A stretch of DNA of 64,000 nucleotides, taken from the IMG/VR virus record IMGVR_UViG_3300030061_003600; one strand, 5' to 3'. A program made the position numbers and the translations under genes. Positions 9,842-40,599 of this stretch are shown here, in pieces. The notes under the pieces are model-generated. The model saw nothing but the letters and a program-made list of their open reading frames with translations. It made no database searches and had not been told where the DNA came from. Origin of the DNA: a virus. Position 1 is the stretch's first letter; each line of letters opens with the position of its first letter.

Positions 9842-12800
9842 TTGAGGAAGGAGGATATGTATGTGATTGGTAAATATGTGGCGAGAAATCCAAATTTTGT
9901 TTACGGAAATTGCAGTCCTTTCGCTGATACCACCAAAACTTACCCAAAAGATGGGCTTATACAAGGTCAATATGGAATAAATACTTCTTATTGGAAATCA
10001 CTTAAAAAAGTGGCTGACCAAAAAGGAAAACAAAAGACCGAATACTTTAAAGAAAGAATTTTAACAGGAAGCGGAGCCAAAGACCCTGATGTAAGAAAGT
10101 TGATGGATAGATTATTTAAACACCCTGTTTATGAAGATTTAGTAGATGCATTGGGTAATTTAATTAATTATAATGTTTTAAACAATACATTCCAATCAAT
10201 AGGTGAGAGAGGAAGCACCTTTGACAAAATAAATACAAACCTTAATTTTTCTTCACTTCCTTATGGTTTAGTTTCATCTATAAATACAGGAAACTACAAG
10301 CATTATGTAGATTATACCGGACAACTTTCAGTTACAGAGGTTAAGGAAATGATGATAGCACTTTCTCCGGTTAATCTTAATTTAAGTAATTCAACAGTAG
10401 AGCAGACAGGAAAGTATTTTCAATGCGTATTGAACTCGGATGAAAATACCATTAAGTTAGATTATAGAAAAAACTTTGCAAGGGGTTATATAAAAAATGA
10501 AAAAGTAAATTTAGACCTGCGAAGCACAGGAGAAGATTATAATTGCACACCCCTATCCTTACAATCTTCCATAGATGAATCTTATATGACAGGTGGGTAT
10601 GCCTATAATTTAGAAAAGATAAACGATGAATCAACTAAAATAAATATATCACCTATTTCGGATAAACAAAGTTGCACGGAGAGAGATTTGCAAAAGATTG
10701 AAAAACAAGCAGAATTTGTAAGTGATTTACCCAACAATGATAAATATGTAAAGGTTTCAGGTATAAAAGGAAAGGAATTATTAGATAATGTTATGCCTTT
10801 TAGTTGTTTGTCAAGAAATTTTTATGATAGTGCAAATCAAATTTTTAGTGAAAGCAAAGATGGTTTTAAAGCAATTTCTACAAGATTATATTTTGACAAA
10901 AGAAATGAGGTGTTTTTAAATGCCCGAAGTAATGATTTATTTTTTGCTTTATCCTGTGCAACATTTGGAGATATTAAAGAAGATGTAATAGATGTTTATT
11001 ATAACGAGTCAAAGGATGAAGCATATTTTGTAAATTCAAATAAAGAACAATATGGATATTGTAGAGGTTTAAATGCTTCATTGCTTTCTAATTGTGAGCA
11101 CATTATTTATGCAGAATTATATAAGCCATCTTTATCTATTCAGCAGAAAACTCAATTATTTGAGGAGCAGGATGTAAGACCGATAACTTTATCTAAAGAA
11201 ATAATAGATGAAGCAGAAAGTTTAGAGTCAGCAATTCAAAGACAGGCAAAACTACAAGACATTCAAGATGGAGAGATATTTTATAAACTCTTAATTAAAA
11301 ATATAACTGCATATGTTTATACTTATGCGGAGCAAATAAAGGTAAATGGTTCATTGGTGTGGAGAACACAAAAAAATCCAAAATGGTCATTAGATGCAAG
11401 TGAGGGTAATTGGTTTAAAAATCAAGATGGAAAGATGCAATGGTCTAATCCGGACAATTTTTATATCTATGATGTAAGAGAAACATTTTGGATGAACAAT
11501 CAGGATATGTCAATAAAAGAGGTGTTGGCATATTTTGTAACAAAAGGAGGAAGCAGTAAAGACAATTCATCTTATTACAGAAAACTTTGCCAAAGGATAT
11601 TAGGAATAGATTATTTCGTTTTTTCTAAAAAATTATTCCCAATACTTTTACAGGAAGGATATATATGCGTTGAGGAATTAGATATTTCGCCAAGTTCAGG
11701 AGAGGTAACAAACCGGAAATATAGTTATCGTTATGATTACACATCGGGAGATGTATATAAAAAATTAGAAGTTCTTGGGGGCAACCTTCAAGACAATATA
11801 AAAGCATTTTATGGAGAAAATAAAGGAAATCAAATTATAGATAATCAATTTTCTCTTCTTGATAATGCAAAACCTACACCCCTTTCTTTTGGAGATAAAA
11901 ACCCCGCATTAAATCTTGTAATTAATATACATAACCCTATTTTATTTAGAAGTAAAGATAGTTTTGTTGGTAGAATAGGTGAGGATTATGGTGTATTTAG
12001 AGATGGAAAAGTGAGAATTTCAACCGTGGAGCAGGGAGATAATATGTATAATCCTATAAAAGAAGGAGGAGGAGGAAGAAGTCAAATATATAAGTATTTT
12101 AGAGAGCAAAATCCATTGAACTTATCTAACAATCATTTAAAGAAATTTTATGAATGGATAATGTTTGGAAAAGGAGTGGATTTTATAAGTAATCCAATAA
12201 TAAAGAACAGAAAAGAGTTTTACTTAATTGAAGGATATGTTTTTCCTATTCCTTCATCAGAATTTATTACCAAGCACATACTTCCAAATTTTGAAAAGAT
12301 TGTAGATGAGGGAGATAATATACCTTGTCCTTTAGAGTTTTTGCCCCAACTTCAAAAAAATCAAAAAACATTTACTAAAGGAAATGTATATAAAAATAGT
12401 GACAGATTCCAATATAGTAACTTAACACAAGCAAGTAGAGAAAACTTAATTAAAATAGGATTAGTAGAGAAAAAACCAAAGAAGGCAGTAGAGGTAAAAA
12501 TAAAAGACCCTAAAGACCCGAAACAAACAATTACAAAAAAACAAATGTTTACTCCTATTACAGAGGAAGAGGGTAAAAGGATTTTTAATGTTATTTCAGA
12601 TAAATATAAGAAATTAGAAAGTGAGATAATAATTGAGGGTAATTCTTTATTTACTATTTTTTGTAAAACACAACTTAAACCTGATTACAGAATATATTTA
12701 GAAAAATTATGGAACTCTACATATAACAATATGGCGGTTGCTAATTATAAAAAGTTTCCTATTTTCTGTGAGCATTCAAGGTGGTTTGGCTCAATGCCAA

Positions 12801-15800
12801 AACCTTTTTTGTTTAATTTAAGAGATGCCCAAGTTGAGGGTATGAAGTTTTCGGTAGCAAACAAAAATTCAGGACTTTTGGCACACGAGGTTGGTTTTGG
12901 TAAAACAACCACATCTATTGCTATGATGTCCCATATGATATTAACCGGAGAAAGTAAAAGAACGATAGTATTTACTCCTAATCAGGTTTATGAAAAATTT
13001 GCAGATGAGATTATTGGGAGAGATACTACGGGCACATTAGGTCTATTAACAAATTGGCAAGTATTAGAAAAAGACAAAAGAGAAGGAAATAAAAGCCGAG
13101 TAGATATTATTAAGTTTGGAAATGCATCTACAACTATTTTATTTGGAACAAAAGATGTTGAGGGTCTTAAAGAATATAATCAAGATGAATTAGATATTAT
13201 AGCAAGGTGGAAGGGAAAAACTAAACCGAGAAAAGGAAAAGACACAAGAACTGAAGAAGAAAAAGGGGTGTTAGAGCAGGTTAGAAAACAACTATCTAAT
13301 TTACCCGCAGGGCGACCAACATTTTTACCTGAAGATAATCTTCCTGTCATTACTTATAGTGATGGTAGAGAAGAGGGTAGTAGGTTTTCAAAGACATTAA
13401 GAGAATCAGATGCAGGAAAATGGTTTGATTCTTTTAATTATTATCTTGGTTCAAAGATACCTGAACTTTACGATGATGAAAATGTATCTCAACTTGAGGC
13501 AATTGAAGGTGTTATTGATAAAGTACAAAGATTAATAGATTTTAATGTTGCAACAGTAGATAGTGAATATGAGAAATTTAAAACCGGATATAGATATAAT
13601 ATGCAAGATTTTACCGGAGAAAATAAATCTAAAATATCTACCTATCCACAATCAGTACAAGATTGGTGGAAGAAAGCAGACCCAAGAGCAAATAAAAACA
13701 CTCTAAATTATGCAATAGGTCAGAATTCTTATCCTCAAAAATCTTGGGTTAGCAATACCGATGATGCTTTAAAAGATGGGGTGATTACTAAAAGTCAATA
13801 TGACAGAATTAAAGCGGAAGAAAAATCTCTTCAACAAGAATGGGAGGGAACTTTATCCGAGTTGGGAATAAAGAAAATAAAACAACTTGAAAATAATCTT
13901 GGTAAAGTATTTTTTAATCCAACTGACAATAAAAATTCAGGAAAAGTTACCGTTCTATTGAAGCAAATAGAAGGGATGTTAATTGATATATTAGGCATAT
14001 ATAAACCGCAAGTATTAGCGGAAAATAGGATAATTTTATGTTCACATCAGGCAATTAAAAAGTTTAGGGCTTCTTCCGAAGCAAGAGATAAAGCCAAGAT
14101 GTATGTGCAAAATGTAGAAGATGTTCGGTATGTAAATCCAAGCACAAGTAGATTTTATGATAATCTTGCTAATCAACCACTTTCTTTTAGAAAATTAAAC
14201 ATTGATGGTATATGTGTAGATGAGATACACAATTTCAATAATTTAATAAGTAAGCCAAGAGAACATATGTTGTCTAATGTTTCTCCAAAACGATTAGGAA
14301 GAAGCAAGGCGGAGAAAGAGTTCCATTTACTTCCTACTATGTCAGCAAATGCTGCTCTTAAATTTTTACCCGATGGAGATAGTATTACATCTAATGTTGG
14401 TCTGTATATTCAAGAGGAAACACCATATCATCATCCAAACAAGAAAAATCTTAAAACAGAAAAATCGGGCAGTCAGAATGCTTACCGACTTAAATACTAT
14501 TCTTCAGGTAAGGGTAGTTTAACAAGTGGACCATCCAATCTAATGGCTTTAGTGTTCCAAATTCAAGAGAAAGAAAGCAATAAAGATGTTAATAATACAA
14601 TTTTAATGTCTGCAACCCCTTTCACGGATAACATTTTCCAAATGTTTTCAGTATTTGGTATGACTAATTTAGAAAAGATGAAAGAGAGCAACATTGCATC
14701 AGTATGGGAATTCTTTGTGACTTTTGTAAAAGAAGAATGGAGATATAACATTACACATAGGCAAACCTTCGGATTATTTCCGGAAATACAGAGTTATTAT
14801 AACACTTCAGCAATGGCGAACTTTATAAAGGCGATGGCTAATTTTAAGGTTTCCGATAAAATTATTGAAAGCACCCGACCTTTAAAATATCTTATACCAC
14901 AAGATGGTGCGGATAGTGGGTATCAAGCGGGAGCAAATACTTCATCTGTGGAATGGGCACCTGAACTTGCGGATGTGTCAAGTTATATTGAATTAAGTCC
15001 TGTTCAAACACAGATAATGAAAAAGATTTCAGAATATGTAGAAGGAAAGATAGATGTTCCTTTCCAATACTGCCCTAATTATGGAGAGGCAATACAAGTA
15101 AAGGAAGAAACCGGTGAGATAACATTTGTTAATGAGGAGGTTAAAGAAACGATTGAAGAAGTAGATGATATATTAAAAAGAGCAAAGAAAGAAGAAGAGT
15201 CAAGTAATGAGTGGAGTGAATTGCTTTTTGAGGCGAGAAGATTATTGGTTTCATTAAGAGAAGCATATCCTGAAGATGGAAGAATTGCACGAAAACAACA
15301 AAAGGTGGATAGGGCACTTTATGAGCCGGAGCAACTAAAAGAAATGAAAGAGGAGGAGTCCTTATATGATAGTAATTATGAGGACATTGATTTGACCGTA
15401 AATAGCAAGAATGAAGTTAGGTTAGCAAGAGCAATTGTTGGTCAATCTTTTGGGCAATTATGTGTGATTTCTCCTTATCTATTAAAATGTGATAAAGATG
15501 GAATAACTCCTAACGACCTACTAAAAGATTATCCTTTATATCCTGATGATAAATCTAAATCGGCAAAGAATTTTGTAGAGCAAAGTCCAAAAATTAAATA
15601 TGCCGTAGAGTGTGCAATAAACTCAATACTTTATGACTCTAAATCAGTTAGAAATGACCGGCAGGTTGGAGGTCAGATAATATACATTAATAAGGGTAAA
15701 AGTATGAAGTATGGCGGAAACTTTTATAATATATATGAACTTATACAAACTTATATAGCAGATAGAAAAATTAAGTATTATGACAATATAGAAGAGAAAG

Positions 15801-17212
15801 AAAAAATACTAACTAAAGAGCATATTGGTATTATTACGGGGGGTATGTCGGGAACAGTAAGTGCGACAGATAAGTACAATGAGGTCAAGATAGATAATAC
15901 GACTAATAAACCTAAAAAAATAGGTAAAAGAGAAGATATAAGAGATAAGTTTAATGATGGAAGAATAAAGATATTAATAGGTTCTTCGGCTATAAAAGAA
16001 GGAATAGACCTAAATAAAAGAGCCCATACTCTTTATGTATGTGATAGCGACTTTTCTCCTTCTAATGCAATGCAATTAGAGGGCAGAATATGGCGACAAG
16101 GAAATATGTGGGAGTTTGTCAGAATAGTATATGTGCTTGGGAGAGATAGTATTGATGCATTCGTTTATTCAAAACTCCAAACCAAGATAACAGAGATTAA
16201 AAAGATGTTAGAGCAGGGAGTATATGAAATGAATAAGACCCAATATACTATAAATGCAAAAGAAAGAATTAGAAATATAATTTCTGATATTGACCAATTG
16301 ACTGATTTGGCTTGGCAAGACCGGGTAGATGAATTAAACATAAAAGTTGCTAATTATTCAGATGAAAAGAGTAAACTTCAAACTATAAGAAAAAAATATG
16401 GAGAAGTAAAAATTTCTTTTGATAAATATGTATATATGATGAACCTTCTTTACAAATTGGTAATAGATAGAGAAAAAAGAATACTTGCGGATAAAGAAAA
16501 AACACAAATTGATATATTAAAACAATATGAGTGGCAAGTAAAAAGTAGAGGTAGGGGCAGGTTGTGGAGAGAGCAGAATAGGTTTGTTCCGGTTTCTATG
16601 GAGGAGGTATTGGAAATTATTGATAAGAAAATAGATAATAACGATATAGTTTTGGAAAACCAAGATATTCATCTAACCTCTTATTCAGATATGTCAGAAG
16701 TAAATGTCGTTGCAAATAAGGTTAGAAGAATGGTAAATGCACGAAAGGGCGAGATAAAAACCATTCTTTCTTTACCCCAAGACCAAAGAGATATGGAATT
16801 AAGAAATACTAATTCAGAATCAAGTTTAGGGAAACAGGTAGTTAAAGTTATTTTATATAATCAAAAGGATAAAAAGGGTTTTGTGTATGAATCTCTTGTT
16901 AAAAGAATAAATGAATTTGTTACCGGCTCTGAATATGAAAGTGTAATTACTAATTATAATTATCTAATAGAAAATAAGGGATATTCTATTGAAGATGCGG
17001 AACTATTAATTACTAAAGCAAATAACAAAATAGTAGAAGGTCAATCAGAATTAAATAGCGAAAAGAAGTGGAAGTCGGAAAGAAGAATAAAAGAGCAGGA
17101 AATTCAAGATGAAAACTCTAAAATGAGAGGAGATGACCTTGAAACATTGATAGAGAACTTTAAGAGGTCTATGTCATTATTAAAAATTAGAGTAAAAAAA
17201 GATAAAAAATGA
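9842..17212 (+). CDS. very large DarB-like SF2 (SNF2-type) helicase/translocase; true start may be upstream at 9770
   Basis: LLAHEVGFGKT (I), CVDEIHNFNNL (II), MSATPF (III), IGSSAIKEGIDL (V), QLEGRIWRQGN (VI), the motif style of P1 DarB-type proteins. Confidence 0.85.
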   Translation: MRKEDMYVIGKYVARNPNFVYGNCSPFADTTKTYPKDGLIQGQYGINTSYWKSLKKVADQKGKQKTEYFKERILTGSGAKDPDVRKLMDRLFKHPVYEDLVDALGNLINYNVLNNTFQSIGERGSTFDKINTNLNFSSLPYGLVSSINTGNYKHYVDYTGQLSVTEVKEMMIALSPVNLNLSNSTVEQTGKYFQCVLNSDENTIKLDYRKNFARGYIKNEKVNLDLRSTGEDYNCTPLSLQSSIDESYMTGGYAYNLEKINDESTKINISPISDKQSCTERDLQKIEKQAEFVSDLPNNDKYVKVSGIKGKELLDNVMPFSCLSRNFYDSANQIFSESKDGFKAISTRLYFDKRNEVFLNARSNDLFFALSCATFGDIKEDVIDVYYNESKDEAYFVNSNKEQYGYCRGLNASLLSNCEHIIYAELYKPSLSIQQKTQLFEEQDVRPITLSKEIIDEAESLESAIQRQAKLQDIQDGEIFYKLLIKNITAYVYTYAEQIKVNGSLVWRTQKNPKWSLDASEGNWFKNQDGKMQWSNPDNFYIYDVRETFWMNNQDMSIKEVLAYFVTKGGSSKDNSSYYRKLCQRILGIDYFVFSKKLFPILLQEGYICVEELDISPSSGEVTNRKYSYRYDYTSGDVYKKLEVLGGNLQDNIKAFYGENKGNQIIDNQFSLLDNAKPTPLSFGDKNPALNLVINIHNPILFRSKDSFVGRIGEDYGVFRDGKVRISTVEQGDNMYNPIKEGGGGRSQIYKYFREQNPLNLSNNHLKKFYEWIMFGKGVDFISNPIIKNRKEFYLIEGYVFPIPSSEFITKHILPNFEKIVDEGDNIPCPLEFLPQLQKNQKTFTKGNVYKNSDRFQYSNLTQASRENLIKIGLVEKKPKKAVEVKIKDPKDPKQTITKKQMFTPITEEEGKRIFNVISDKYKKLESEIIIEGNSLFTIFCKTQLKPDYRIYLEKLWNSTYNNMAVANYKKFPIFCEHSRWFGSMPKPFLFNLRDAQVEGMKFSVANKNSGLLAHEVGFGKTTTSIAMMSHMILTGESKRTIVFTPNQVYEKFADEIIGRDTTGTLGLLTNWQVLEKDKREGNKSRVDIIKFGNASTTILFGTKDVEGLKEYNQDELDIIARWKGKTKPRKGKDTRTEEEKGVLEQVRKQLSNLPAGRPTFLPEDNLPVITYSDGREEGSRFSKTLRESDAGKWFDSFNYYLGSKIPELYDDENVSQLEAIEGVIDKVQRLIDFNVATVDSEYEKFKTGYRYNMQDFTGENKSKISTYPQSVQDWWKKADPRANKNTLNYAIGQNSYPQKSWVSNTDDALKDGVITKSQYDRIKAEEKSLQQEWEGTLSELGIKKIKQLENNLGKVFFNPTDNKNSGKVTVLLKQIEGMLIDILGIYKPQVLAENRIILCSHQAIKKFRASSEARDKAKMYVQNVEDVRYVNPSTSRFYDNLANQPLSFRKLNIDGICVDEIHNFNNLISKPREHMLSNVSPKRLGRSKAEKEFHLLPTMSANAALKFLPDGDSITSNVGLYIQEETPYHHPNKKNLKTEKSGSQNAYRLKYYSSGKGSLTSGPSNLMALVFQIQEKESNKDVNNTILMSATPFTDNIFQMFSVFGMTNLEKMKESNIASVWEFFVTFVKEEWRYNITHRQTFGLFPEIQSYYNTSAMANFIKAMANFKVSDKIIESTRPLKYLIPQDGADSGYQAGANTSSVEWAPELADVSSYIELSPVQTQIMKKISEYVEGKIDVPFQYCPNYGEAIQVKEETGEITFVNEEVKETIEEVDDILKRAKKEEESSNEWSELLFEARRLLVSLREAYPEDGRIARKQQKVDRALYEPEQLKEMKEEESLYDSNYEDIDLTVNSKNEVRLARAIVGQSFGQLCVISPYLLKCDKDGITPNDLLKDYPLYPDDKSKSAKNFVEQSPKIKYAVECAINSILYDSKSVRNDRQVGGQIIYINKGKSMKYGGNFYNIYELIQTYIADRKIKYYDNIEEKEKILTKEHIGIITGGMSGTVSATDKYNEVKIDNTTNKPKKIGKREDIRDKFNDGRIKILIGSSAIKEGIDLNKRAHTLYVCDSDFSPSNAMQLEGRIWRQGNMWEFVRIVYVLGRDSIDAFVYSKLQTKITEIKKMLEQGVYEMNKTQYTINAKERIRNIISDIDQLTDLAWQDRVDELNIKVANYSDEKSKLQTIRKKYGEVKISFDKYVYMMNLLYKLVIDREKRILADKEKTQIDILKQYEWQVKSRGRGRLWREQNRFVPVSMEEVLEIIDKKIDNNDIVLENQDIHLTSYSDMSEVNVVANKVRRMVNARKGEIKTILSLPQDQRDMELRNTNSESSLGKQVVKVILYNQKDKKGFVYESLVKRINEFVTGSEYESVITNYNYLIENKGYSIEDAELLITKANNKIVEGQSELNSEKKWKSERRIKEQEIQDENSKMRGDDLETLIENFKRSMSLLKIRVKKDKK

Positions 17213-19461
17213 GAAAGTTTTTAGACACATTTCCTAATATAAAACTTCAGCAGTTATATACAGTATATCCTGATTATAATGTTTTTATTAACGAATTAAT
17301 TGAGTTAGATAAAAAGGTAAAAGAAGGTGTTTCGGTAGAGGTTGAAGAGCAATATGAATTACTTATGAATACTTTGGATGCCTTTTTATTTAGAGAAAGT
17401 AGCATTGAAAAGTTTAACAATGTATATACTAACCCTATACAACAAATTGATATATCATTGATACCACAACAAGGAGTATCATTGCCATTAGAAGAAAGAG
17501 AAGAAATAGAAGCAGATTTAGAAAGCGAGATAAAGGAGATGATGAAAGGAGTGGATAGTGATGTTGTTGAAGAAATAATGCAAGAAAACGAAGAACAAAA
17601 ACAAAAGATAATCGGAGAGGAAATGCCAATCCGAACAAGAGAAGATTTTGATGAAGAAGATAGGTTTGTGGGGATAAGTTGGAAATATGATACTTTCAAG
17701 CAAACTGAATTTGCCCTTGCTCTTGCTATGTTAAAGCAAGGTTGTAAATTTTATTATACTACATATGGGTCCAAGCATTTCGCAATGTTTAAGTTAAAGG
17801 GAATGGGTAGAATAATTATAGAAACATCAGAGGAAAGATATAGTTATGATAACTTATTTCAACCATCTAATAAAGAATTAAAAGTATTTATGCTTGATGA
17901 TAGTGGAAAATCATTGCAAACTATTTTCAATATATTCAAAGATGCTTGGGATATGGATGAGGATTCTTATTCCAAATTAGATGATGAATTTTTATTTAAT
18001 ACTCCATACATATATTCAGCATATCAAGAAGGTGTATTGTGGAAAGAGGCAGAATTGCTACAACAGTCAAGGGGTATTGTTGAAAGAGGAAGATGGCTCA
18101 ATGAGTATTTTTCATTATATGTTCCTTTAGAAAGAATATGCACATTACAGTTGTGTAAAGAGGTTCACCAAAACACAAGGGGAAGCGAGGCAGATGCAAA
18201 AGAAGTTATACAAAGAGATTTAAAGGAAAATACCTTTTATATAGAGGGTATTGGGGATGTAAATCATTCCTATGATATTTTAGAAAAATTACAAACTCAA
18301 AACCTATTAGATATAAATTATAAACCTACTCCACTTGCATCCGGATTGCTTTCTTACAATAGCGATAAAATTATGCCGCAGTTCAGACCATTTATGTATT
18401 ATATGAACAATTTGGGTGAAAATTTGAAAAAATCAAAAGAAACTTATTATTCCTCTTTTAATGGTCAAACAGTTTATCACACCAAAAAAGATGTTAAGGA
18501 TATAAAATTTGCTTTAGCAATTCCAAGTACGGACAGACAACTGATGGGTGTTGAGAATGCTATTCAGGCAGATTCTTTTCCTGTTAAATGGCAACAAGAA
18601 GAAGATTTTAAGAACTACCACGAGTATTTAACATTTGCTTCCGGAGGTAGTTTAAGTATTAGAAAAATGCACGAAGCCCGTGAGCAAAGAAAAGCAACAC
18701 AGGGTAAAATAATGTTTAGAGATTTAGACCGAAAAGAATTATATGTAGCAAGTACAGAAAGACCCGGCATAAATTACTGCATTAACGGACAAGATTATAG
18801 GTATATATGCTCAATGTACGGAGAGGATAATATACGAATTTTAGGAACACCCGATTCACCTTTTAGTAAGCCATCATTAGTATTTTTTATGATAGTAGAT
18901 GCCAAAAACAACTTATTAGCAGTATTGTCTGCACTTGGCTCACAGGCACAACCGGCAACTAAAATGGTGGAAACAAGAAAGGGGGTTTGGGAGGAACAAG
19001 ATAGACAGATTTCTCCACGAATTCCAATAGATATGCAAGAAAAGATTTTGAATCAAAGGGAGGAAATACAATTAGATATTCTTGCAAGTTGGATAACCCT
19101 ATCTTCAAGAAATTACCCAAAAGAAATTTGGGATATGCAGAGTGCCGTAGAAGAGGTAGAAAAAACTGCACCTGTTCTAACATTAGAGGGAAAAATGATA
19201 GGTGAAAAAGAAGATATAGACACGAGTAATGAAGAGGAAATAAAAACAGATGAGGCGGAAAAAAGGGAAGATATAATTATAGATTTTGACAACCCTGAAG
19301 AGCCAATCGTTTTAGTAGAAGATGAGAAAACAATTAAATTAAAAGAACTAAATGAAGAGTTACTTGACCTGCAAGATTATATAGAGGAGATAGGAAATGA
19401 CCCGGATGCAGAAAAAGAAATTGAAGAAATAAAACAAAATATAGAAGCATTAAAACAATAA
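17209..19461 (+). CDS. large hypothetical protein (750 aa) with acidic ends
   Basis: Long ORF overlapping the helicase stop; one FASGG; no family recognised. Confidence 0.75.
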   Translation: MRKFLDTFPNIKLQQLYTVYPDYNVFINELIELDKKVKEGVSVEVEEQYELLMNTLDAFLFRESSIEKFNNVYTNPIQQIDISLIPQQGVSLPLEEREEIEADLESEIKEMMKGVDSDVVEEIMQENEEQKQKIIGEEMPIRTREDFDEEDRFVGISWKYDTFKQTEFALALAMLKQGCKFYYTTYGSKHFAMFKLKGMGRIIIETSEERYSYDNLFQPSNKELKVFMLDDSGKSLQTIFNIFKDAWDMDEDSYSKLDDEFLFNTPYIYSAYQEGVLWKEAELLQQSRGIVERGRWLNEYFSLYVPLERICTLQLCKEVHQNTRGSEADAKEVIQRDLKENTFYIEGIGDVNHSYDILEKLQTQNLLDINYKPTPLASGLLSYNSDKIMPQFRPFMYYMNNLGENLKKSKETYYSSFNGQTVYHTKKDVKDIKFALAIPSTDRQLMGVENAIQADSFPVKWQQEEDFKNYHEYLTFASGGSLSIRKMHEAREQRKATQGKIMFRDLDRKELYVASTERPGINYCINGQDYRYICSMYGEDNIRILGTPDSPFSKPSLVFFMIVDAKNNLLAVLSALGSQAQPATKMVETRKGVWEEQDRQISPRIPIDMQEKILNQREEIQLDILASWITLSSRNYPKEIWDMQSAVEEVEKTAPVLTLEGKMIGEKEDIDTSNEEEIKTDEAEKREDIIIDFDNPEEPIVLVEDEKTIKLKELNEELLDLQDYIEEIGNDPDAEKEIEEIKQNIEALKQ

Positions 19462-19464: not shown

Positions 19465-22400
19465 ATGGAGGAATATAAAGGTAAAACAATTGAGGAGTTA
19501 AGCGAGTTATTAGATGATTTGCAAGAGCAACAAGAGGTTTTGATTGATGACCTTGATGACCCGGATTTAAAAGAGGCATATGATAGTAATGAAGCCGAAA
19601 TTGCAAGAATAAAATCTGCTATGGGGACAACAGTTGGTAGTGTAGAGCAAGATTTAGAGTATAGAGAAGAAATGGATGCTATGGAAAAAGAGATAGATGA
19701 AAAAGATGAAACCTTTGTAGTTACGGAAAAAGAAGTTAAAAATTCTGATTTAGAAAATAGTAAATTCTCCGATATTAAAATAGATAAAAGCATCTTTTTT
19801 GGAGATGGTGGAAAAACAAAAACAGGAATTATGAAAAATATAGATTTAGACACTTACCATAAAATGCGTAATGCAGAATTTAATAAAGAAGTGAAAGCGG
19901 GAAGAATGGAAGATACTGATGAAAATTGGGAAAGATTTGATGAGGAGTATTTTGAGGAACTTTATGCTAAAGGATATACGATAGAAATGGCAAAAGGTGG
20001 TGCAATTTATAAGGGACATAAAGTAAAGATAAAGGATAGCGGTAAAACAATGAAGGTTACTGATGTATCTAAAAACAAAAAAGACCAAGTAGAGTTTTCA
20101 GGAGATGAAGGAACATACTTGATTGGAGATATTGAAAAAATGGAAAAAGGTGGTAAGGTTTTTAAGGCACCTAAAGGTTGGAGAAAAACAAAACAAGATG
20201 AAGGAGAAAAAACTTATAAGCATAAAGATGGAAGAGAAATTATAGTATCTGATAGTATGGTGGGAACCCCATCTTTTGAGGTAATATGGGAAATAGAAAA
20301 ATCTTACAATTGGGAAGATTGGAAAACAAAAAAGTTTCCGATGAACAAAGAGGGCACTAAAAAAATGGAAGAATTTTTGACAAAACTAATGAGTAGTTCT
20401 TATGCAAAAGGTGGTAAGATTGAAATTACATCTGCACCCGACTATCATAAGGTAAGAAATAAGGAGTATGATAAAAGAGTAAGAGAGGGAAAAATCAAAG
20501 ATACTGATGAAAATTTTGAAAAATTTGATGATGAGTATTTTAATGAATTAGTCAAAAAAGGTAAAATTGATATGGACAATTATTTCGCAAAAGGTGGTAA
20601 AACTGATGATGTAATTATGATTAAAATAGGTGGGGATAAAAAATACCCATATTATATTAAGAAGATTGACACTACACATATGTCTATGGCTAACAATAAA
20701 GATGGAGTTGATTTAGTTGTTCCATCTCATATTTTGCAACACAAAGGAGAAAGTTATTATGATGATGTTCGTTCTTGGTTAAAAGGAGGGCAAAGTCCTA
20801 ATGGAAAATCTTATGATAGTGATTATTACGCTAAAGGTGGTGAAGTAGACAAAGAATACATAATTAGAGTTTACGAAAATCAACAAGATTACGAATTTGA
20901 TGAAAACTATGATAATGTTTATTTAGATGATAAAGCACCAAGCAAAAAAAGAGCCATTAGGAAAGCCCGAGAAATAGAAAATAATAAAGGTAAAAAAGAT
21001 ACTTGGGTAAGAGTAATAGATAATGCATCACAATACAATGATGAAATATATTCTACTACATTTCCTCAAGGTTTTGAAAAAGGTGGAGAAGTAAAATGGG
21101 ATTTTAGTGAAGAAGAAGTTATAGATGGTGCTAATAATTTAGCATCTGCACTAACGCTTATAGATGGAAAATTATTTCAGGTACACGATTTTGAATATGA
21201 CAAAGGTAAAGGTGCCGGTTTTGAACTATCAATAGATGATGAAAAATATGCAGGAGGAAGTTATTATATTGATGCAGATGGCACAATGATAAATGCGGCT
21301 ATGAGTGGTGCTCCTTATGGTAATATAAAAGATAGTAAAAGGGAGTTAATAAAAGCATCTAAATCATTTGCAAAAGGTGGAGAAACTGCTACCGATTATT
21401 CAGGAGAATATAGAGATTTAAGAACTTTTGTAATGAGAAATGGTTTGCGAGAAGCAATGGGTAAAAAATATGGCTTTGAGGCAAAAGATTATGAAGATTA
21501 TGTAAGAGGAGAGTTGGGATATGATACTGAAGTTATACAAGAATTAGCAGGAGATAGATATAAAGTTGAGTATATAGAGAGATACGATGAAGCAACAGGA
21601 AGGAGAGATAAAGATGGAGAAGGAGTTATTATTGTAAGCAAATCATTTGCAAAAGGTGGTATGACAGGATTTAATAAGTTTTTTGATAAATTCAAAAGAA
21701 GTGATGCTTATATATCTGAACCAAGGAAAACTGCTAAAGGAAATTACATAGTAGAAGTAGAGCCACACGATAAAGAAACATCTAAACAAATGAAAGATTA
21801 TATGCAAAGTGAAGGTATAGGATATAGTCCTAAACCTATGGGTAAAGGTTTTTATACTCAATTTGCAAAAGGTGGAGAAACTGAAAAAGGTTATTTAGTT
21901 CTTTTATATGCAGGTTCATATCAATTTAAGAACTCATCAGAGTCAAATATATATTTAAATACTTTGGTTGATGCAATAGAATATGCCAAAAAAGAAATGC
22001 GAAAACAAAGAAATTATCGTTCATCAACGGATAAAATGTGGGCAGTAATTAAAGGAGAAGGGCAAGATATAAGAATAACTGAAGATGATGTTAAAGATTA
22101 TTATGAAAAAGGTGGTCCTATCAAAAGAGGAAGTGGAGCAAGAATGAGTATTGATTTTATAAAAGAAACAAGAAAAGTTGGTGATTTTGTAAGGGTTGAA
22201 ACTGATATTTTGGGAAAAGAAGAATTAACAGGAGAAATTGAGAGTTTCAGTCCTTTAAAAATAAGAACAGATGAAACATCAGTTGTAGTAATTCCTAATG
22301 AGTCCATCAAATATCTTACAGACCCAAGTCCTTTCAACTATGCAAAAGGTGGAGAAATTAGTATAGAGGGAAATCCTTATAAAAATGAAGATTTTTTCAT

Positions 22401-24051
22401 ATATAGAAATGGAAAAGAAGTAGCAAGTTGGAATGTAGATGAAATGGCAGAAGATGAAGATGTAGAAGATTTAGCCAAAGAAATGTTTTATTTGTGGAAA
22501 AATGATGAAGAAGAATTAGGAAAAAGATTAGATAGAATAAGTTATGCAAAAGGTGGTAGTATAGAAAAAGAATTAGAGGGTTATCAGGGAATGTATGATT
22601 ATGCGATAGCCAACAATTTTACACCAAGCCAATTAGCAGATGAATTAGAATTTACAACAGGTTTAAAAGATGAAAGAGATAAAAAGTTTTATGCTCATCT
22701 TAAAAATTTAACTCGTATGTTTCCTGATAAACCCCTTTCTGAATTTGCAAAAGGTGGTGTAACTAAAGGGCAAACATTAGCCGAAAATTTTAATAGGAAA
22801 GATGAAGTTAAAAATGTGGAATTTTGGAAAAATGATGTCATAGTTAAAGATAAAGATGGAAAAGCAGTAAGAATAGATTTGGATAAAGGAGAAAGAATAG
22901 AGTTAAATGCAAAAGGAGGAGAAACTGCTTCACCAATAACTAATTATCATAGAACTATAATGGGGACATTAGGGTTTGATTTGAAAGTTAAAGGAATGAG
23001 AAAAGCACAAGATTTTATTGTATATCCTATTGTTGCAAAAACAGATACTATAAGAATTCAAAGTGATAAAAAATGGGGAGAGATACATATTAATACAGGA
23101 AAAGGAATTTTAAGCAAGTCAGGAAGCACGAGTTGGCATTTACACGCTGATATGATGAATATGAATGTCATTAAGTTTGAATTAACACCCGAAGAATTGG
23201 AAGAATTAAAAAAACAAATAAAATCTACTTCAGGAAAAGATGTAGGTAATACTATTATGAGAACTGATAATAGCGGAGCAGCACTTCTTGAGCACGGAGG
23301 AGAAATTGATTTAAATGAGGTTGATATATATGAAGCGGATGAAAATGGAAATTTTACGGTTGTGATTGATGGAGATGTCTTTGATATGAATTATCATACT
23401 ATGCCTAATATGAGTGTTAATATGTATGCAGGAAGTCGTTCAGAATATCCTTCAGACATTAGTCATTGGGGTAAAAAAATAACATTTGAAGATGCACCTC
23501 AAGTTATAAAAGATAAAATAGGAAAGAGAATAGAGGAATTCCATACGCATTTAGATAAGGGAGGTAAAATCAAGGAAGATAAAAGAAAGTGGTCACATCA
23601 TATGTGGTTCACAAATGAAAAACCGGGTGACACTTATTATTATGAAGATGCCGTAATAGATTATTTGATAGATAATCCACGAACTTTTAAGTTAGATATA
23701 AATAGAAGAGCCCTAAATAAGCCGGGTAAATTATCTGAAGTTTATAAAGATATGGGAATAAGCACAAGTAGTGGATATTTAAATCCTCAAGATATAAAGC
23801 AGTTTGCTATTGATAATGAGAAATACGATTGGTTAAAGATAGAAGGAGATAGAGGTTCTGACTCAAGAAAAAGAACGATTAAAAAGTATTTAGATAGAAG
23901 AAAAAAATATGCAGAATATGCAGAGGGTTTATCAAGAGAAGAATTATTAGAGCAAATTGAAATGTTAAATACGATGGCTTGGGAAGAAAAGGATAATGAA
24001 ATGAGGTCAGAAATGTTAGCAGAAGTAAATAAAATGAGAACACAACTATAA
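19465..24051 (+). CDS. modular protein of about 18 small domains separated by 17 [YFM][AE]KGG-type motifs
   Basis: Motifs in order: FGDGG, MAKGG, MEKGG, YAKGG, FAKGG, YAKGG, FEKGG, FAKGG x3, YEKGG, YAKGG x2, FAKGG, NAKGG, LEHGG, LDKGG. Confidence 0.85.
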   Translation: MEEYKGKTIEELSELLDDLQEQQEVLIDDLDDPDLKEAYDSNEAEIARIKSAMGTTVGSVEQDLEYREEMDAMEKEIDEKDETFVVTEKEVKNSDLENSKFSDIKIDKSIFFGDGGKTKTGIMKNIDLDTYHKMRNAEFNKEVKAGRMEDTDENWERFDEEYFEELYAKGYTIEMAKGGAIYKGHKVKIKDSGKTMKVTDVSKNKKDQVEFSGDEGTYLIGDIEKMEKGGKVFKAPKGWRKTKQDEGEKTYKHKDGREIIVSDSMVGTPSFEVIWEIEKSYNWEDWKTKKFPMNKEGTKKMEEFLTKLMSSSYAKGGKIEITSAPDYHKVRNKEYDKRVREGKIKDTDENFEKFDDEYFNELVKKGKIDMDNYFAKGGKTDDVIMIKIGGDKKYPYYIKKIDTTHMSMANNKDGVDLVVPSHILQHKGESYYDDVRSWLKGGQSPNGKSYDSDYYAKGGEVDKEYIIRVYENQQDYEFDENYDNVYLDDKAPSKKRAIRKAREIENNKGKKDTWVRVIDNASQYNDEIYSTTFPQGFEKGGEVKWDFSEEEVIDGANNLASALTLIDGKLFQVHDFEYDKGKGAGFELSIDDEKYAGGSYYIDADGTMINAAMSGAPYGNIKDSKRELIKASKSFAKGGETATDYSGEYRDLRTFVMRNGLREAMGKKYGFEAKDYEDYVRGELGYDTEVIQELAGDRYKVEYIERYDEATGRRDKDGEGVIIVSKSFAKGGMTGFNKFFDKFKRSDAYISEPRKTAKGNYIVEVEPHDKETSKQMKDYMQSEGIGYSPKPMGKGFYTQFAKGGETEKGYLVLLYAGSYQFKNSSESNIYLNTLVDAIEYAKKEMRKQRNYRSSTDKMWAVIKGEGQDIRITEDDVKDYYEKGGPIKRGSGARMSIDFIKETRKVGDFVRVETDILGKEELTGEIESFSPLKIRTDETSVVVIPNESIKYLTDPSPFNYAKGGEISIEGNPYKNEDFFIYRNGKEVASWNVDEMAEDEDVEDLAKEMFYLWKNDEEELGKRLDRISYAKGGSIEKELEGYQGMYDYAIANNFTPSQLADELEFTTGLKDERDKKFYAHLKNLTRMFPDKPLSEFAKGGVTKGQTLAENFNRKDEVKNVEFWKNDVIVKDKDGKAVRIDLDKGERIELNAKGGETASPITNYHRTIMGTLGFDLKVKGMRKAQDFIVYPIVAKTDTIRIQSDKKWGEIHINTGKGILSKSGSTSWHLHADMMNMNVIKFELTPEELEELKKQIKSTSGKDVGNTIMRTDNSGAALLEHGGEIDLNEVDIYEADENGNFTVVIDGDVFDMNYHTMPNMSVNMYAGSRSEYPSDISHWGKKITFEDAPQVIKDKIGKRIEEFHTHLDKGGKIKEDKRKWSHHMWFTNEKPGDTYYYEDAVIDYLIDNPRTFKLDINRRALNKPGKLSEVYKDMGISTSSGYLNPQDIKQFAIDNEKYDWLKIEGDRGSDSRKRTIKKYLDRRKKYAEYAEGLSREELLEQIEMLNTMAWEEKDNEMRSEMLAEVNKMRTQL
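19993..22760 (+). repeat. dispersed in-frame repeat AAAGGTGG (core of WWTGCAAAAGGTGG), 13 consecutive motif copies
   Basis: Motifs 2-14 of the 1528-aa ORF all use AAA GGT GGN; spacing about 150-300 nt. Confidence 0.85.
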
Positions 24052-24060
24052 CTTAATTAT

Positions 24061-26289
24061 ATGAGCATAGAAGAGAATAGAAAAAAAGAAATGGGTTTTC
24101 CTAAAAATCCTGACAATATAACTAAAGATGAACTTCACGAACATTTTGATTTAAATAATGATGGTAAAGTTAATATAGAAGAGTATGCTGAACATATTAA
24201 TTATCATTGTGAAAACCCTGATGTTTTAGAGGATGAAATGCAACAAGCAGATTTTGAACGAGGTTTTAAATATGCAGAGGGTGGAAAGGTAGAAAAATAT
24301 ATAATTGTAAGGGGTACTAAATATGGTGAAAAGTATTATTACCAAAAGGGTACTAATGAACATAACAACAAATGGTTAAGAACTAAAAAAGGGGCTACTA
24401 TTTTTACTGACATTAAAGAAGCAGAAAAATATGCTGATGAATCCGATGGAGATATAGAAAATTTAACTACCTATGCAAAAGGTGGAGAGGTAGAGATATT
24501 TAGTTATTACTTTGATGTTGATAAAGTAAAAAGCATAGAAAATGTAGAAGTATTTACAAATCAAAGAAAAGGACATAAGAATTATGTGAGAGTAGATTAT
24601 ATTCAGTTGTCTAAACCCCAAACTATGCAAGTTGATTTTAGAAAAATACCATTTGATACACAAGAGGAATTAACCTACATTAAAAAAACTTTACGAGATA
24701 ATTTCGGCTCTACCTATGCAAAAGGTGGTAAAACTAAAAAAGCCAAAACTTGGAAAGAAAAGTATAATAAAAAGTATGGTAATGATTTAGATGCATCAAA
24801 TTCTTTATCAGACATTGCAGAAGATACAGGAGTTTCAAAAAAAGGAATACAAAAGATATATAATAAAGGTATTGGGGCATATAAAACAAACCCCTCAAGT
24901 GTTAGACCTAATGTTAAGTCAAAAGAGCAATGGGCTCAAGCAAGAGTTTATAGTGCAGTAATGGGAGGCAACGCAGCCAAAGTAGATGCTAAAGAGTTAA
25001 AAATGGAAAAAGGTGGAGCATTAAAAAAAGAGTTTAAATTTGACAAAAATTTTGTAATATATGTTCCTTCTACTACTGATGTTGGAGAAAAAATATCTAA
25101 AAAAGAATTAGAAAAGAGGGTTCAAGAAGTAGAAAAATATGTAGCCAATGAATTTGGAGGATATACTGAAACAGAAACCGATGGAGGGTATAAATCAACT
25201 TCAGGAGAGATAATAGAGGAAGATATTGTTAAAGTATCAGTATTTGCTAATAATAAAGATTGGAAAAATAACGAAAACAAAGTTGTAAAGAAAGTAAAAG
25301 AATGGTCTAAAAAATGGGGTCAGGAAGCCATAGGATTTGAATTTGAAGGAGATTTATATTATATAGATGCAGATGGAAAGTTTGGATGGGGAGGAACTAT
25401 ACTTGGTGCTCTTGTCGGGGGGTATGCAGGATATAAGATAGGAAGGGCAAGACCCCAAAAGAAAGGATTTGACACCGAAAAGAAATTAATTAATAGAGCC
25501 AAAAACACAAGATGGGACAAAGATGGCGGCATAAGGTATGCAAAAGGAGGAGAAATGATGAAAGGAATTAGAACACCTAAAATAGTAGAGTTTGAAGATG
25601 GTGGAGAAGTTGATTTATTTGAGCATTATGAAAAACTGCCAACTAAATCAAAAATTATTGTTGATTATTATATGCAAAAGTATGAAGATGGAGATTACGA
25701 TTATAGTGATAGTAAAAAGTTCCTTGAAGAAATGGAAAAAACCGGATATACTTTTGAATATGGGTTAGATAATGAGCCATATGATTTAAGAAAAATGAAA
25801 ATAGGCGGGGCATTAGAATTAGTACACGCATATGATGATGATGGCTCCTTATTTGGAACAGGACATATAGAAAAAGTAGAAGGCGGAAAGACCTATGTTA
25901 GATTTGATAGCCAAAAGGTTAAGGCATTTGATAATGACAAAGTTAAGCCCGTAATGGCAAAGGGTGGATTAACACCTGCCAAAGCAAAGAAAATGTTAGA
26001 TGATGGAATGGCTCAAGGAAAGCCGCTTACTGATAGGCAAAAAAGATATTTTGGGGCAATATCGCAAGGAAAAGCAGATAAAGCAAGAGAAAAATCAAGT
26101 ATGAAGAGGGGAGGAAAAACAAAATCTATAAATTATAAAAAGAAAGATTATGGTTTAGATTATTTATATAATCAATTAAAAATTAGTCGTGAACTTTTAG
26201 ATAGAGCAACAACTACTGATGAAAAAGATATTCTTTCATTAAGATTGAAAAGCATACAAAAGGTAATTGATAATACATTGAGAATATGA
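24061..26289 (+). CDS. second GG-motif modular protein with N-terminal EF-hand
   Basis: EF-hand loop DLNNDGKVNIEE; motifs YAEGG, YAKGG x3, MEKGG, FEDGG, MKIGG, MAKGG, MKRGG. Confidence 0.8.
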   Translation: MSIEENRKKEMGFPKNPDNITKDELHEHFDLNNDGKVNIEEYAEHINYHCENPDVLEDEMQQADFERGFKYAEGGKVEKYIIVRGTKYGEKYYYQKGTNEHNNKWLRTKKGATIFTDIKEAEKYADESDGDIENLTTYAKGGEVEIFSYYFDVDKVKSIENVEVFTNQRKGHKNYVRVDYIQLSKPQTMQVDFRKIPFDTQEELTYIKKTLRDNFGSTYAKGGKTKKAKTWKEKYNKKYGNDLDASNSLSDIAEDTGVSKKGIQKIYNKGIGAYKTNPSSVRPNVKSKEQWAQARVYSAVMGGNAAKVDAKELKMEKGGALKKEFKFDKNFVIYVPSTTDVGEKISKKELEKRVQEVEKYVANEFGGYTETETDGGYKSTSGEIIEEDIVKVSVFANNKDWKNNENKVVKKVKEWSKKWGQEAIGFEFEGDLYYIDADGKFGWGGTILGALVGGYAGYKIGRARPQKKGFDTEKKLINRAKNTRWDKDGGIRYAKGGEMMKGIRTPKIVEFEDGGEVDLFEHYEKLPTKSKIIVDYYMQKYEDGDYDYSDSKKFLEEMEKTGYTFEYGLDNEPYDLRKMKIGGALELVHAYDDDGSLFGTGHIEKVEGGKTYVRFDSQKVKAFDNDKVKPVMAKGGLTPAKAKKMLDDGMAQGKPLTDRQKRYFGAISQGKADKAREKSSMKRGGKTKSINYKKKDYGLDYLYNQLKISRELLDRATTTDEKDILSLRLKSIQKVIDNTLRI

Positions 26290-27503: not shown

Positions 27504-28472
27504 ATGGCAAGAAATAGAAGAAGAACTAAAAATTCACCACAAAATATAAATACTTCCTCACCCAAAACCAAATATGGGCTAATACCGGTAAATAATCTTA
27601 CCTATGGAAATCCAAATGCTGCCCAAGATATAATGGTAAGACAAGAGGGTAATTTTGACTATATAGCAAACCACTATATGGATAAGCCCTATCCCAACAA
27701 TGATGGTAATTATGCTCATAAAGAGTTAAAATCTATACGAAAAGATATGGAGAAACTACAACACGATAAAGTTGTAGAATTGAGCATAAAATTTGATGAA
27801 GATTTAAGTGGAATGTTAATTGATACTGCTGACAAATGCGGTGTTTCTAATCCTTCAGAATTTGTTAAAGAATTAATGCAGGATATAAATCCTATTATAA
27901 TGAAGTTAAAATACTTCTACAATAGAATTAGACCTTATCAATTAGCCAATGTAACTTCATTCCCTCTAAATCCAATGCCTACTATTTCTGCACAATCACC
28001 ATCTTATCCATCAGGACATACTGTTCAAAGTAGAGTTTTTGCAGATGTATTAAGTTTTCGTTATCCTGACCAACAGGATATGTTAGACAAGTTTGCAGAT
28101 AAGTGCTCTAAATCAAGAATTATTTTGGGGGTTCACTTTCCATCTGATGAGGTTTTTGGTAAGCAGTTAGCCGCAGGAATTGTTAAAGATGAAAACTTTA
28201 AACATAAGTATTTTAATGCAGAGAGAATTGCCGAAGGTGTTAGCAAAAGTCCTATAAAAAACTATGCCAACGCACATCCCGAAAATGACCCATTTGGAAT
28301 ATCTAATTCAATTAATGGTCAAAGTCAAAGACAACAAAATAGAGATTCTCAACCAAGACCGGGTGCAGATTTATACACACCCCCTAAAACAGTAAATGAA
28401 GATGAAATTTTTGGCGGAGTTCCTAAAGCACCTGATGGCAATATGCCGTTCCCGGGTGCCCCAAGACCTTAA
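27504..28472 (+). CDS. PAP2/acid phosphatase-haloperoxidase superfamily protein
   Basis: All three motifs: KYFYNRIRP, PSYPSGH, SRIILGVHFPSD. Confidence 0.85.
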   Translation: MARNRRRTKNSPQNINTSSPKTKYGLIPVNNLTYGNPNAAQDIMVRQEGNFDYIANHYMDKPYPNNDGNYAHKELKSIRKDMEKLQHDKVVELSIKFDEDLSGMLIDTADKCGVSNPSEFVKELMQDINPIIMKLKYFYNRIRPYQLANVTSFPLNPMPTISAQSPSYPSGHTVQSRVFADVLSFRYPDQQDMLDKFADKCSKSRIILGVHFPSDEVFGKQLAAGIVKDENFKHKYFNAERIAEGVSKSPIKNYANAHPENDPFGISNSINGQSQRQQNRDSQPRPGADLYTPPKTVNEDEIFGGVPKAPDGNMPFPGAPRP

Positions 28473-38519: not shown

Positions 38520-38520
38520 T

Positions 38521-39635: not shown

Positions 39636-39772
39636 TGGCTTTAGAACCTTACGAACAAGAAGAGATGGAAATGGATGTAATACAGAATGGAATATCCGTA
39701 AAGTATTTAGCCATTGCCGGTGGAGTGTTAGTAGCATTAATAGTAGGAATAAATTGGTTAATTAGAAGATGA
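39635..39772 (+). CDS. small TM protein (45 aa, not in ORF track)
   Basis: Overlaps the upstream stop and downstream ATG; YLAIAGGVLVALIVGINWLIRR. Confidence 0.7.
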   Translation: MALEPYEQEEMEMDVIQNGISVKYLAIAGGVLVALIVGINWLIRR

Positions 39773-40599
39773 ATATATTATTTAAAACAAAGCAAAAGTC
39801 ATTAACAATAATGATAGAGGTCGTTACAGATGGTCCTCAAAAAATGCAAATTGTTGTAAAGGATATAAATAAGCCAAATACGGATTATACAAACCGATAT
39901 GCAACCATAAATGGAACACAGAGGTTTTTTGTAAGAATGCCAATGTCACCATATGAAGCATTAATTAGCGTGTATAATAAAGCAAATGGCAATTTAAAAC
40001 AAGGTCAAGACCCAACTTTTAAAGTAGTAAAAGTGGATGCAAGACCTTTAGAAAGAAAAATGGATTGTGTTGATTGGAGTAATCCAAAAATTAGGGATTT
40101 TGTGAATTTTGCACAACAATTCTCTGACAACGCAGGTATATTAAGTGCAGGAAAGTTTCCTAATGGGAGCACATATATCTCTGATGAGGGTAATTTTAGA
40201 ATAGATTACTTTGATGATATAAGAACAAAAAGAGGTTTGGTAATACAAACCCCTGCAAGAATTAGTCAGTCCAAAGGAATTATACAAGTGAGCAAAGCAC
40301 ATTATAAAAAGTTCACAGTTCCAATGAGAATGGCAATTCTATTACACGAATTTTCTCATTTTTATTTAAATGAGAATATGGAAGATGAAACAGAAGCAGA
40401 TTTGAATGGATTATTAATTTATTTGGCTCTTGGTTATCCAAGGATAGAGGCATATCAAAGTTTCCTTACAACATTTAAGGACACACCGACACCTCAAAAC
40501 AAAGAAAGGTTTGACATTTTAAATCAGTTTATAACAAATTTTGAAAGAAATAAATTTTGTACTCAATATAACACACCCAATTTGAATGCAAGTAGATAA
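39769..40599 (+). CDS. HExxH zinc metalloprotease (gluzincin-type), candidate maturation protease
   Basis: AILLHEFSHFYLN followed by ETEAD; N-terminal beta domain; no TM. Confidence 0.7.
   Translation: MNILFKTKQKSLTIMIEVVTDGPQKMQIVVKDINKPNTDYTNRYATINGTQRFFVRMPMSPYEALISVYNKANGNLKQGQDPTFKVVKVDARPLERKMDCVDWSNPKIRDFVNFAQQFSDNAGILSAGKFPNGSTYISDEGNFRIDYFDDIRTKRGLVIQTPARISQSKGIIQVSKAHYKKFTVPMRMAILLHEFSHFYLNENMEDETEADLNGLLIYLALGYPRIEAYQSFLTTFKDTPTPQNKERFDILNQFITNFERNKFCTQYNTPNLNASR

Follow-up and report, generated by a model that had tools for sequence, protein, structure and literature searches.

A tag-punctuated array of exchangeable protein modules in an uncultured marine bacterial virus

Architecture of array A

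In this work we describe array A, a single long gene of the virus record IMGVR_UViG_3300030061_003600 that encodes a chain of small, mostly unrelated protein modules joined by copies of one short peptide tag. The gene lies at positions 19465 to 24051 of the 64,000-nucleotide stretch that was analysed, hereafter the window. The window is 31% G+C, carries all of its genes in one direction and comes from an uncultured marine bacterial virus. The coordinates of array A and of the other main features discussed below are collected in Table 1.

The tag is centred on Lys-Gly-Gly (K-G-G), which is observed 16 times in array A against 1.3 expected from composition. Most of the copies (13 of 16) fit the pattern [YFM][AE]KGG, the three variants being SWLKGG, LNAKGG and HLDKGG, and they follow each other at distances of 17-215 residues, mainly 51-98. 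The original prediction, made from the bare sequence, had 17 copies of the motif spaced 50-130 amino acids (aa) apart, which is close to these counts.

The segments between the tags are diverse. Residues 125-187 and 306-386 form a duplicate pair with 52% identity; the remaining modules are mutually unrelated, with pairwise identities of 16-29%. Homologous copies of one fold between the motifs, the mark of a tandem repeat, are limited to this single pair. The protein as a whole is rich in Lys, Glu and Asp, and several of its modules are acidic, among them m1 with a net charge of -28 and m13 with -10. In each of these respects the original prediction, which spoke of mostly unrelated modules, one clear duplicate and several acidic modules, agrees with our analysis. 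It also proposed several SH3/KOW-like modules, and of these we can offer one, a weak match to the Sm/SH3-like beta-barrel family MS_channel_2nd (E 5.5e-4).

Array A matches no Pfam, PHROG or NCBIfam family, and scans of 16 segments gave marginal matches only. ESM Atlas feature searches with residues 180-540 and 1153-1528 returned nothing usable. Array A is a cassette array: it unites many unrelated domains in one polypeptide, i.e. 17 segments, several of them with independent homologues.

Table 1. Features of the window. K-G-G, Lys-Gly-Gly tag; general form, the relaxed form of the tag.
Feature	Position	Strand	Description
Array A	19465..24051	+	single open frame, 1,528 codons; 17 segments split by 16 K-G-G tags; no cysteine
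N-terminal head m1	19465..20001	+	residues 1-179; net charge -28; common to many related arrays; C-terminal part is a copy of m4
Variable cassette region m2-m15	20002..22920	+	17-98 aa per module; shuffled among relatives
C-terminal tail m16 (215 aa) and m17 (161 aa)	22921..24051	+	kept in most arrays of the clade; matches no known fold or family
Lys codons of array A tags	19993, 20146, 20407, 20590, 20782, 20833, 21079, 21373, 21652, 21868, 22108, 22345, 22549, 22750, 22912, 23557		
Array B	24061..26289	+	742 aa; 5 K-G-G tags (7 of general form); 1 cysteine
362-aa open reading frame	61113..62201	+	two general-form tags (YAAGG, MARGG); 1 cysteine
Array C	62204..64000	+	598 aa within the window, runs off its end; 5 K-G-G tags; 1 cysteine
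DarB-like superfamily 2 (SF2) helicase	9842..17212	+	2,456 aa; PHROG 10089, E 4e-16; upstream of array A
750-aa conserved open reading frame	17209..19461	+	between helicase and array A; no family match; one general-form tag
Candidate processing enzyme	39769..40599	+	276 aa; N-terminal beta-sandwich and M48-like zincin domain

Cassette exchange at the tag

A word-based search recovered 23 marine-metagenome proteins of 870-1,900 residues with 6-18 tags each, and residues 1-1200 of array A, searched exhaustively against 1.84 billion representatives, gave 295 matches at E <= 1e-3. Among these metagenomic relatives (~300) the sets of modules between the tags differ. When all proteins were cut at the tag and the pieces compared, 305 modules were obtained, which group into 55 families apart from 96 singletons. 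A given module recurs at constant length in other orders and beside other neighbours, and a few head and tail domains frame the arrays.

Some of the modules also exist on their own. Free-standing proteins of 65-139 residues, all without the tag, match single modules: P0062 (m3), P0125 (m4), P0150, P0149 and P0136 (m8). A search for stand-alone homologues of the single modules was one of the checks proposed with the original prediction, and it has been successful. The conserved core of m3 starts two residues after the Gly-Gly and stops a few residues short of the next aromatic, and m8 is present also in long proteins without any tag. P0062 and P0125 sit in runs of small open reading frames (ORFs), and the run that hosts P0125 (L135) also holds the recombination genes Sak and DUF3799. 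By analogy with the established organisation of phage genomes, these runs are probably phage early regions. The ~150 module families are a catalogue of small phage proteins, mostly of unassigned function, that can be used for screening. A DNA-word scan of IMG/VR for two tags 180-210 nucleotides (nt) apart gave chance or unrelated loci only.

How are the modules exchanged? We compared positions 19465-26289 of the window with five related contigs using blastn. This gave blocks with 75-100% identity and unrelated sequence between them. The blocks have 45 internal ends, 37 of which map to between -15 and +20 nt from the Lys codon of a tag, compared with 12.8% of random positions (binomial p 8e-26, the ends not being fully independent). 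One block of 228 nt (21648-21875) is 100% identical and is exactly cassette m10. The tag is the junction of cassette exchange, a role on the DNA that the original prediction missed. This makes the in-frame swapping of whole protein modules at micro-homology visible at nucleotide resolution, and such swapping could explain the fast turnover of accessory, possibly anti-defence, repertoires.

The spelling of the tag is as distinctive as its position. The word TWTGCAAAAGGTGG, allowing up to two mismatches (<=2), occurs 24 times on the + strand and 0 times on the - strand, against 1.5 expected, and three genes contain, in frame, all but two of the occurrences. Within the window, 21 of the 24 tags have GGT as their first Gly codon, whereas other x-G-G sites use GGT at 23 of 128 and GGA at 70 of 128. 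The Ala codon is GCA in 18 of the 20 Ala-bearing tags and the Lys codon is AAA in 23 of 24. The same bias is found on contigs L001 and L002. On G001 (102 kb, rated complete) and G007 (a 132-kb contig) there are arrays with up to 19 tags, spelled GCT ... GGC/GGT (GCT for the Ala, GGC or GGT for the first Gly) against local codon usage, and in G002 the tags have little spelling bias. The synonymous spelling of the tag is specific to each lineage and goes beyond codon usage. Such homogenisation within a lineage implies concerted evolution by recombination at the joints. Taken together, breakpoints that fall on the tag and a peptide that persists across spellings show that the tag is a recombination joint and also a constrained peptide.

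Constraint on the synonymous sites of the tag raises the question of whether a DNA or RNA word acts in translation, e.g. as a frameshift, a pause or an internal start. The word does hold an A-AAA-G run and a Shine–Dalgarno-like GGTGG. We find this explanation very improbable, since the spelling differs among lineages with the peptide constant, the leaders are A-rich without a Shine–Dalgarno and GGAGG is common in coding sequence. A frameshift signal in particular was rejected, as a stop codon in the -1 or +1 frame is met no sooner and no later after a tag than on average in the gene. Avoidance of Shine–Dalgarno sequences was likewise rejected as the cause of the GGT codons, given that GGAGG occurs 132 times on the + strand, that other x-G-G sites use GGA and that the leaders are as just described. 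A-rich leaders that lack a Shine–Dalgarno are a Bacteroidota-like trait.

Conservation of the tag peptide

A sequence logo was built from 230 distinct junctions in 27 proteins, three of them further ORFs of the window and the others P0001-P0024. It gives the full tag as [YF]-A-K-G-G-[EK]-[TIVL], with information confined to seven positions, -2 to +4. Once [YF]A is given, the K, G and G of the tag are almost invariant and Lys is almost never replaced by Arg. The 16 predicted module borders of array A read Gly-Gly and then [EK][TIVL].

In relatives reached via the candidate protease described below, the tag peptide is relaxed to [YFML]-[AE]-x-G-G, where x is K, D, N, E or L. Arrays with this form are present in viruses whose core protease is only 45-50% identical; in G003, G006 and G008 the tag is sparse or degenerate. 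YAKGG and YADGG tags alternate in the G001 lineage, and positions 35141-45524 of G001 (L082, L083) contain very short spacer cassettes between tags, e.g. G-G-F-M-N-N-N-N-V-Y-A-[KD]-G-G (10 residues, four copies), as well as 21-residue units. No description of this tag was found in the literature searched.

The retention of the peptide across lineages that spell it differently indicates protein-level constraint on the tag. Judging from the sequences, it is likely to have a role at the protein level, and this role is most probably cleavage.

Instead of being cut, the tag could serve as a binding site for some part of the virion (e.g. the membrane, the inside of the capsid or the packaging ATPase), and its many copies would then secure avid incorporation of the cargo chain. 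As a short linear motif that lies in exposed linkers, with 5-18 copies per protein, the tag would be suited to docking, and in the relatives P0052 and P0118 the tag is located directly before a C-terminal membrane anchor. We nevertheless judge a docking or packaging tag to be improbable: no partner was identified, the copy number varies freely with cassette content and packaging signals are more plausibly sought in the conserved head and tail domains. In P0052, P0118 and P0026, which are arrays or fragments of arrays, E-V-K-K-K-G... comes immediately after the terminal tag and leads into a Gly-rich transmembrane helix. This sequence arrangement suggests that a tag-linked anchor tethers some of the modules to a membrane.

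Predicted structure

Residues 306-472 were modelled with AlphaFold2 (mean predicted local distance difference test (pLDDT) 82, predicted template modelling score (pTM) 0.53), from an alignment of 32 rows that covers module m5/m6 only. The model contains a helical hairpin (m4) and an alpha/beta domain (m5/m6), both confident, and their mutual orientation is undefined. Between these two confident domains, the Gly-Gly of the joint falls in a stretch (model residues 72-75, protein residues 377-380) with a pLDDT <50, and the preceding tag (312-317) is also below 50. The internal SWLKGG belongs to a folded module in the AlphaFold2 prediction. In the model, then, the tag appears as an exposed, flexible linker between separately folded modules, much like beads on a string. 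Fold searches with the model gave a sole clear match, to a 75-aa uncharacterised free-standing protein that matches m5, and no functional lead.

These results support the original prediction of an array of unrelated, independently folding small modules with a tag at the junctions. The prediction also named an opposing scenario, in which the motifs belong to one repeating structural unit, e.g. a fibre or solenoid with the tags as turns. The fairly regular spacing of the tags, at ~50-100 residues, is what such a unit would show. This scenario is scarcely tenable and is already contradicted. The modules, unrelated to one another, vary in both sequence and length, their free-standing homologues do without the tag, the Lys/Glu/Asp-rich composition is unlike that of fibres, and the model consists of separate helical and alpha/beta domains in no fixed orientation, with the Gly-Gly in low-confidence linkers.

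The arrays are almost free of cysteine. There are 0 cysteines in the 1,528 residues of array A, 1 in the 742 of array B, 1 in the 598 of array C and 62 in 56,031 residues across the family (64 arrays), compared with 0.7-7% in most other proteins of the window and up to 7% in its other presumed virion proteins. We infer that this near absence serves translocation in an unfolded state. Cysteine-rich proteins (5-7%, with 47 Cys in an 804-aa ORF) are encoded at positions 49253-53265 and 57066-58436 of the window, in contrast with the cysteine-free arrays.

Genomic neighbourhood

The original prediction placed the array near DarB, and a DarB-like SF2 helicase is indeed encoded upstream (Table 1). 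Gene order is kept on relatives' contigs of 98-122 kb: helicase, 750-aa ORF, array A, array B, PAP2 and amidase. The last two, at positions 27504-29136 of the window, are a PAP2 phosphatase-family membrane protein and then an Amidase_3 cell-wall hydrolase, a pair that is kept just downstream of the arrays in all relatives examined.

Array B hosts DUF5824 (residues 220-308, with tags at 221 and 317), phrog_3543 and phrog_37263, each of which fills one inter-tag space; no paper on DUF5824 was found in the literature searched. Sister arrays include DNA ligase and WGR modules (a sister of array B), RelA_SpoT and Eco57I (P0024) and LPD11 (P0043), and these domains tie the family to the polyvalent proteins discussed below. 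The array B with WGR and ATP-dependent DNA-ligase modules is a 1,379-aa protein on a 122-kb Tara contig (L002, 15764-19903). L003 (6213-10284) has the same array A as L002, with the ligase part as a separate overlapping ORF. On L100 (6900-8500) two frame changes break array A; the contig has 3x coverage, and the changes are probably assembly errors and not real gene splits.

Search for a processing enzyme

If the tags are cut, what might cut them? The original prediction advised a search for a protease of the Ulp1/adenain type (clan CE) elsewhere in the genome. This search was negative: five related records, four of them rated 100% complete, have no match to PF02902 (C48) or PF00770 (C5) at E <= 1, and Pfam scans of the window ORFs recognised no protease family, C48 and C5 included.

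A candidate of a different type is encoded in the window. The ORF at 39769-40599 has 1,664 homologues; across 37 sequences with 48-86% identity, no change is seen at H193-E194-x-x-H197, E207, E209 or D211. Its predicted structure (pLDDT 88.8) is most similar to E. coli BepA (M48, Z 8.4), the Zn-peptidase 3c37 (Z 6.7) and Ste24 (Z 6.1). The features of an M48-type protease, i.e. HExxH with a downstream acidic ligand in a zincin fold, are recognised here by fold and motif, without a Pfam match. No zincin is found within array A itself; this is a separate gene 15.7 kb downstream, amid genes for tail-anchored membrane proteins. From the model, the ORF is a plausible maturation protease, and we tentatively take it as the sole candidate enzyme for cutting the tag. 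Relatives with few tags have the protease too, which means that it must act on substrates other than the arrays. A complex prediction for the protease and a 35-residue junction peptide (714-748), run without controls, scored 0.00 and speaks neither for nor against binding.

Three tail-anchored proteins (38521-39330, 41497-42204 and 43655-44251) share the sequence N-H-P-G-F-[IL], followed by Gly-rich or aromatic residues, which may be another processing site of the same putative zincin.

A model for the array

We propose that array A is a polyvalent cargo protein in the form of an in-frame cassette array, which is probably cut at its tags, packaged and delivered with the DNA, and we give this proposal about an even chance of being right. 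A conserved acidic head and a conserved tail frame ~15 interchangeable small modules, many of them apparently versions of small early genes that other phages encode separately. The lineage-specific word, here GCA AAA GGT GG, is the sole sequence common to these unrelated cassettes. Recombination at the word swaps, adds or removes cassettes with the frame left intact, as the breakpoints show. The persistence of the peptide across spellings would mean that something reads the tag, most likely a protease that would release small proteins from the chain, either while the virion matures or after entry. Packaging and delivery with the DNA are suggested because a DarB-like helicase adjoins the array, sister arrays carry enzyme modules and cysteine is nearly absent.

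Several points weigh against this proposal. Both cleavage and the presence of the array in the virion are read here from sequence and genomic context. Recombination at the joint, through concerted evolution, might be sufficient to maintain much of the peptide within a given lineage, and the third tag residue varies among lineages (K, D, N, E, L), so that recognition, if any, would be loose there. The low pLDDT at the joint may partly reflect an alignment that covers one of the two domains. Finally, the fold match of the candidate protease to BepA is middling on the scale of the tool (Z 8.4), and the protease belongs to the core genes throughout the virus group, even in members whose tags are few or degenerate (G003, G006, G008).

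An alternative explanation is that the chain remains uncut and acts as one long protein. Its small modules might be easily threaded through an ejection channel or might act while tethered, the tag being no more than a recombination joint and a Gly-Gly hinge, with its peptide conserved as a by-product of maintaining a common DNA word in frame. Breakpoints on the tag, lineage-specific spelling and a Gly-Gly in a flexible linker are all compatible with an uncut chain, as is the fact that no dedicated Gly-Gly protease was found in the five related records or the Pfam scans of the window. There are also precedents: the polyvalent N4 vRNAP and ArdC are transferred full-length (PMC5512222). That said, an aromatic at -2, Ala at -1 and a beta-branched residue at +4 are dispensable for a hinge, yet all of them hold in 230 joints and across spellings, and the free-standing homologues work as separate small proteins. 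An uncut chain is possible, and we lean towards doubting it.

Returning to a chain that is packaged and cut, we also entertain a broader version, which we think unlikely in its entirety. Here a large group of uncultured Bacteroidota viruses would possess an in-frame, integron-like platform for protein cassettes, in which a 12-15-nt word, coding for an exposed linker that a protease can read, allows the capture of any small early gene into a giant gene, and the polyprotein is packaged, cut by a virion metalloprotease and delivered ready-made. If true, this platform would be a counterpart, in bacterial viruses, of the Gly-Gly polyproteins of African swine fever virus (ASFV) and adenovirus, with a different class of protease. 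For the polyvalent phage proteins, whose processing has been predicted with no site known, the tag family offers an exact, repeated and conserved candidate site. Furthermore, the tag may serve as a natural portable junction for building multi-protein chains.

Relation to known systems

The polyvalent proteins of phages and conjugative elements are predicted to be delivered together with the DNA and to be processed by zincin-type peptidases (Iyer, Burroughs, Anand, de Souza and Aravind 2017, PMC5512222). Array A shares with them the combination of many unrelated domains in one mobile-element polypeptide, an adjoining DarB-like helicase and mosaic evolution. Relatives with modules in common with array A carry LPD11 ('large polyvalent protein-associated domain'), RelA/SpoT, an Eco57I methylase and DNA ligase, array A itself being without a family match. 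In the 2017 paper no delimiter motif is described, and 'KGG', 'GG motif' and 'linker' are not mentioned (PMC5512222). The present family differs in that one strict tag stands at each joint and is a mapped breakpoint, the modules are mostly tiny orphans and not enzymes, and the zincin is a separate gene.

The precursor proteins of adenoviruses are cut by adenain at consensus sites with a hydrophobic residue placed relative to the first Gly; this residue is two places before the Gly in adenain sites and three places before it here. In ASFV, pp220 and pp62 are polyproteins with Gly-Gly-X sites that are cut by pS273R (PMC10308890). The resemblance lies in a chain punctuated by Gly-Gly sites, which are here predicted from the sequence. 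A further parallel is a virus with an internal membrane, which the present virus seems to be, and one relative of it has inverted terminal repeats. The ASFV and adenovirus sites are cut by clan CE cysteine proteases, none of which was found here, and they yield fixed structural products in place of shuffled cassettes.

In the phages T4, phiKZ and SPN3US, a prohead protease processes internal head and ejection proteins (A-X-E motif, gp245; PMC10052503, PMC5694885). Here the likeness is in a short motif read by a virion maturation protease in packaged or ejected proteins, some of them with multiple sites on the T4/phiKZ/SPN3US side. Most of the prohead cuts remove an N-terminal propeptide (13 of 14 sites in SPN3US) and do not split a protein into 15 modules. 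Their motif is no recombination joint and the protease is of a different class.

Exchangeable modules bordered by a short peptide are well known from the polymorphic toxins (VENN in CdiA, DPxGL in Rhs) and from MARTX, where the peptide gives homology for swapping and, in Rhs and MARTX, is a processing site. These are bacterial toxins and not viral multi-cassette arrays, with either one variable tip or a small number of effectors that a cysteine protease domain of the toxin itself cuts apart. We found no earlier description of a tag-punctuated viral cassette array in the literature searched.

The virus

The relatives of the virus are 84-132 kb in size, and those in genome collections are mostly in metagenome-assembled genomes labelled Bacteroidota. 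An Amidase_3 gene and a peptidoglycan-binding domain point to a bacterial host. A viral context is supported by synteny with the amidase, a small HerA-like ATPase and membrane-protein genes; the ATPase (HerA/FtsK-like, 272 aa, 33598-34416) has weak matches only. A tblastn search with the array and the protease against 50,697 deposited phage genomes gave no match. No prohead protease, portal, large terminase or tail family was recognised in the window, the PHROG scan having covered part of the ORFs, and Protein Data Bank (PDB) sequence searches with the ATPase and a presumed capsid protein gave no match. Likewise, no orthologues were located in distant relatives with the C-terminus of the helicase as query.

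One relative, G004 (IMGVR_UViG_3300042868_013265, 84,420 bp; L024), is classed by IMG/VR as having inverted terminal repeats and as 100% complete. A protein-primed polymerase (PF03175) was not found in G004 or in four other relatives. On the evidence of its genes, the virus looks like a large membrane-containing virus without relatives among the deposited phage genomes, and the group to which it belongs is itself undescribed.

Positions 36400-50500 of the window encode many small proteins in succession, each closing with a C-terminal transmembrane helix and then basic residues (tail-anchored), as well as a 239-aa beta-rich protein without cysteine (37180-37899). In the relatives G001 (77760-90800) and G002 (70917-80000), IGGG/TIGG/NTAS repeats, in up to 36 copies, fill several ORFs of 540-1,450 aa, and from their sequence these ORFs may encode fibre or spike proteins.

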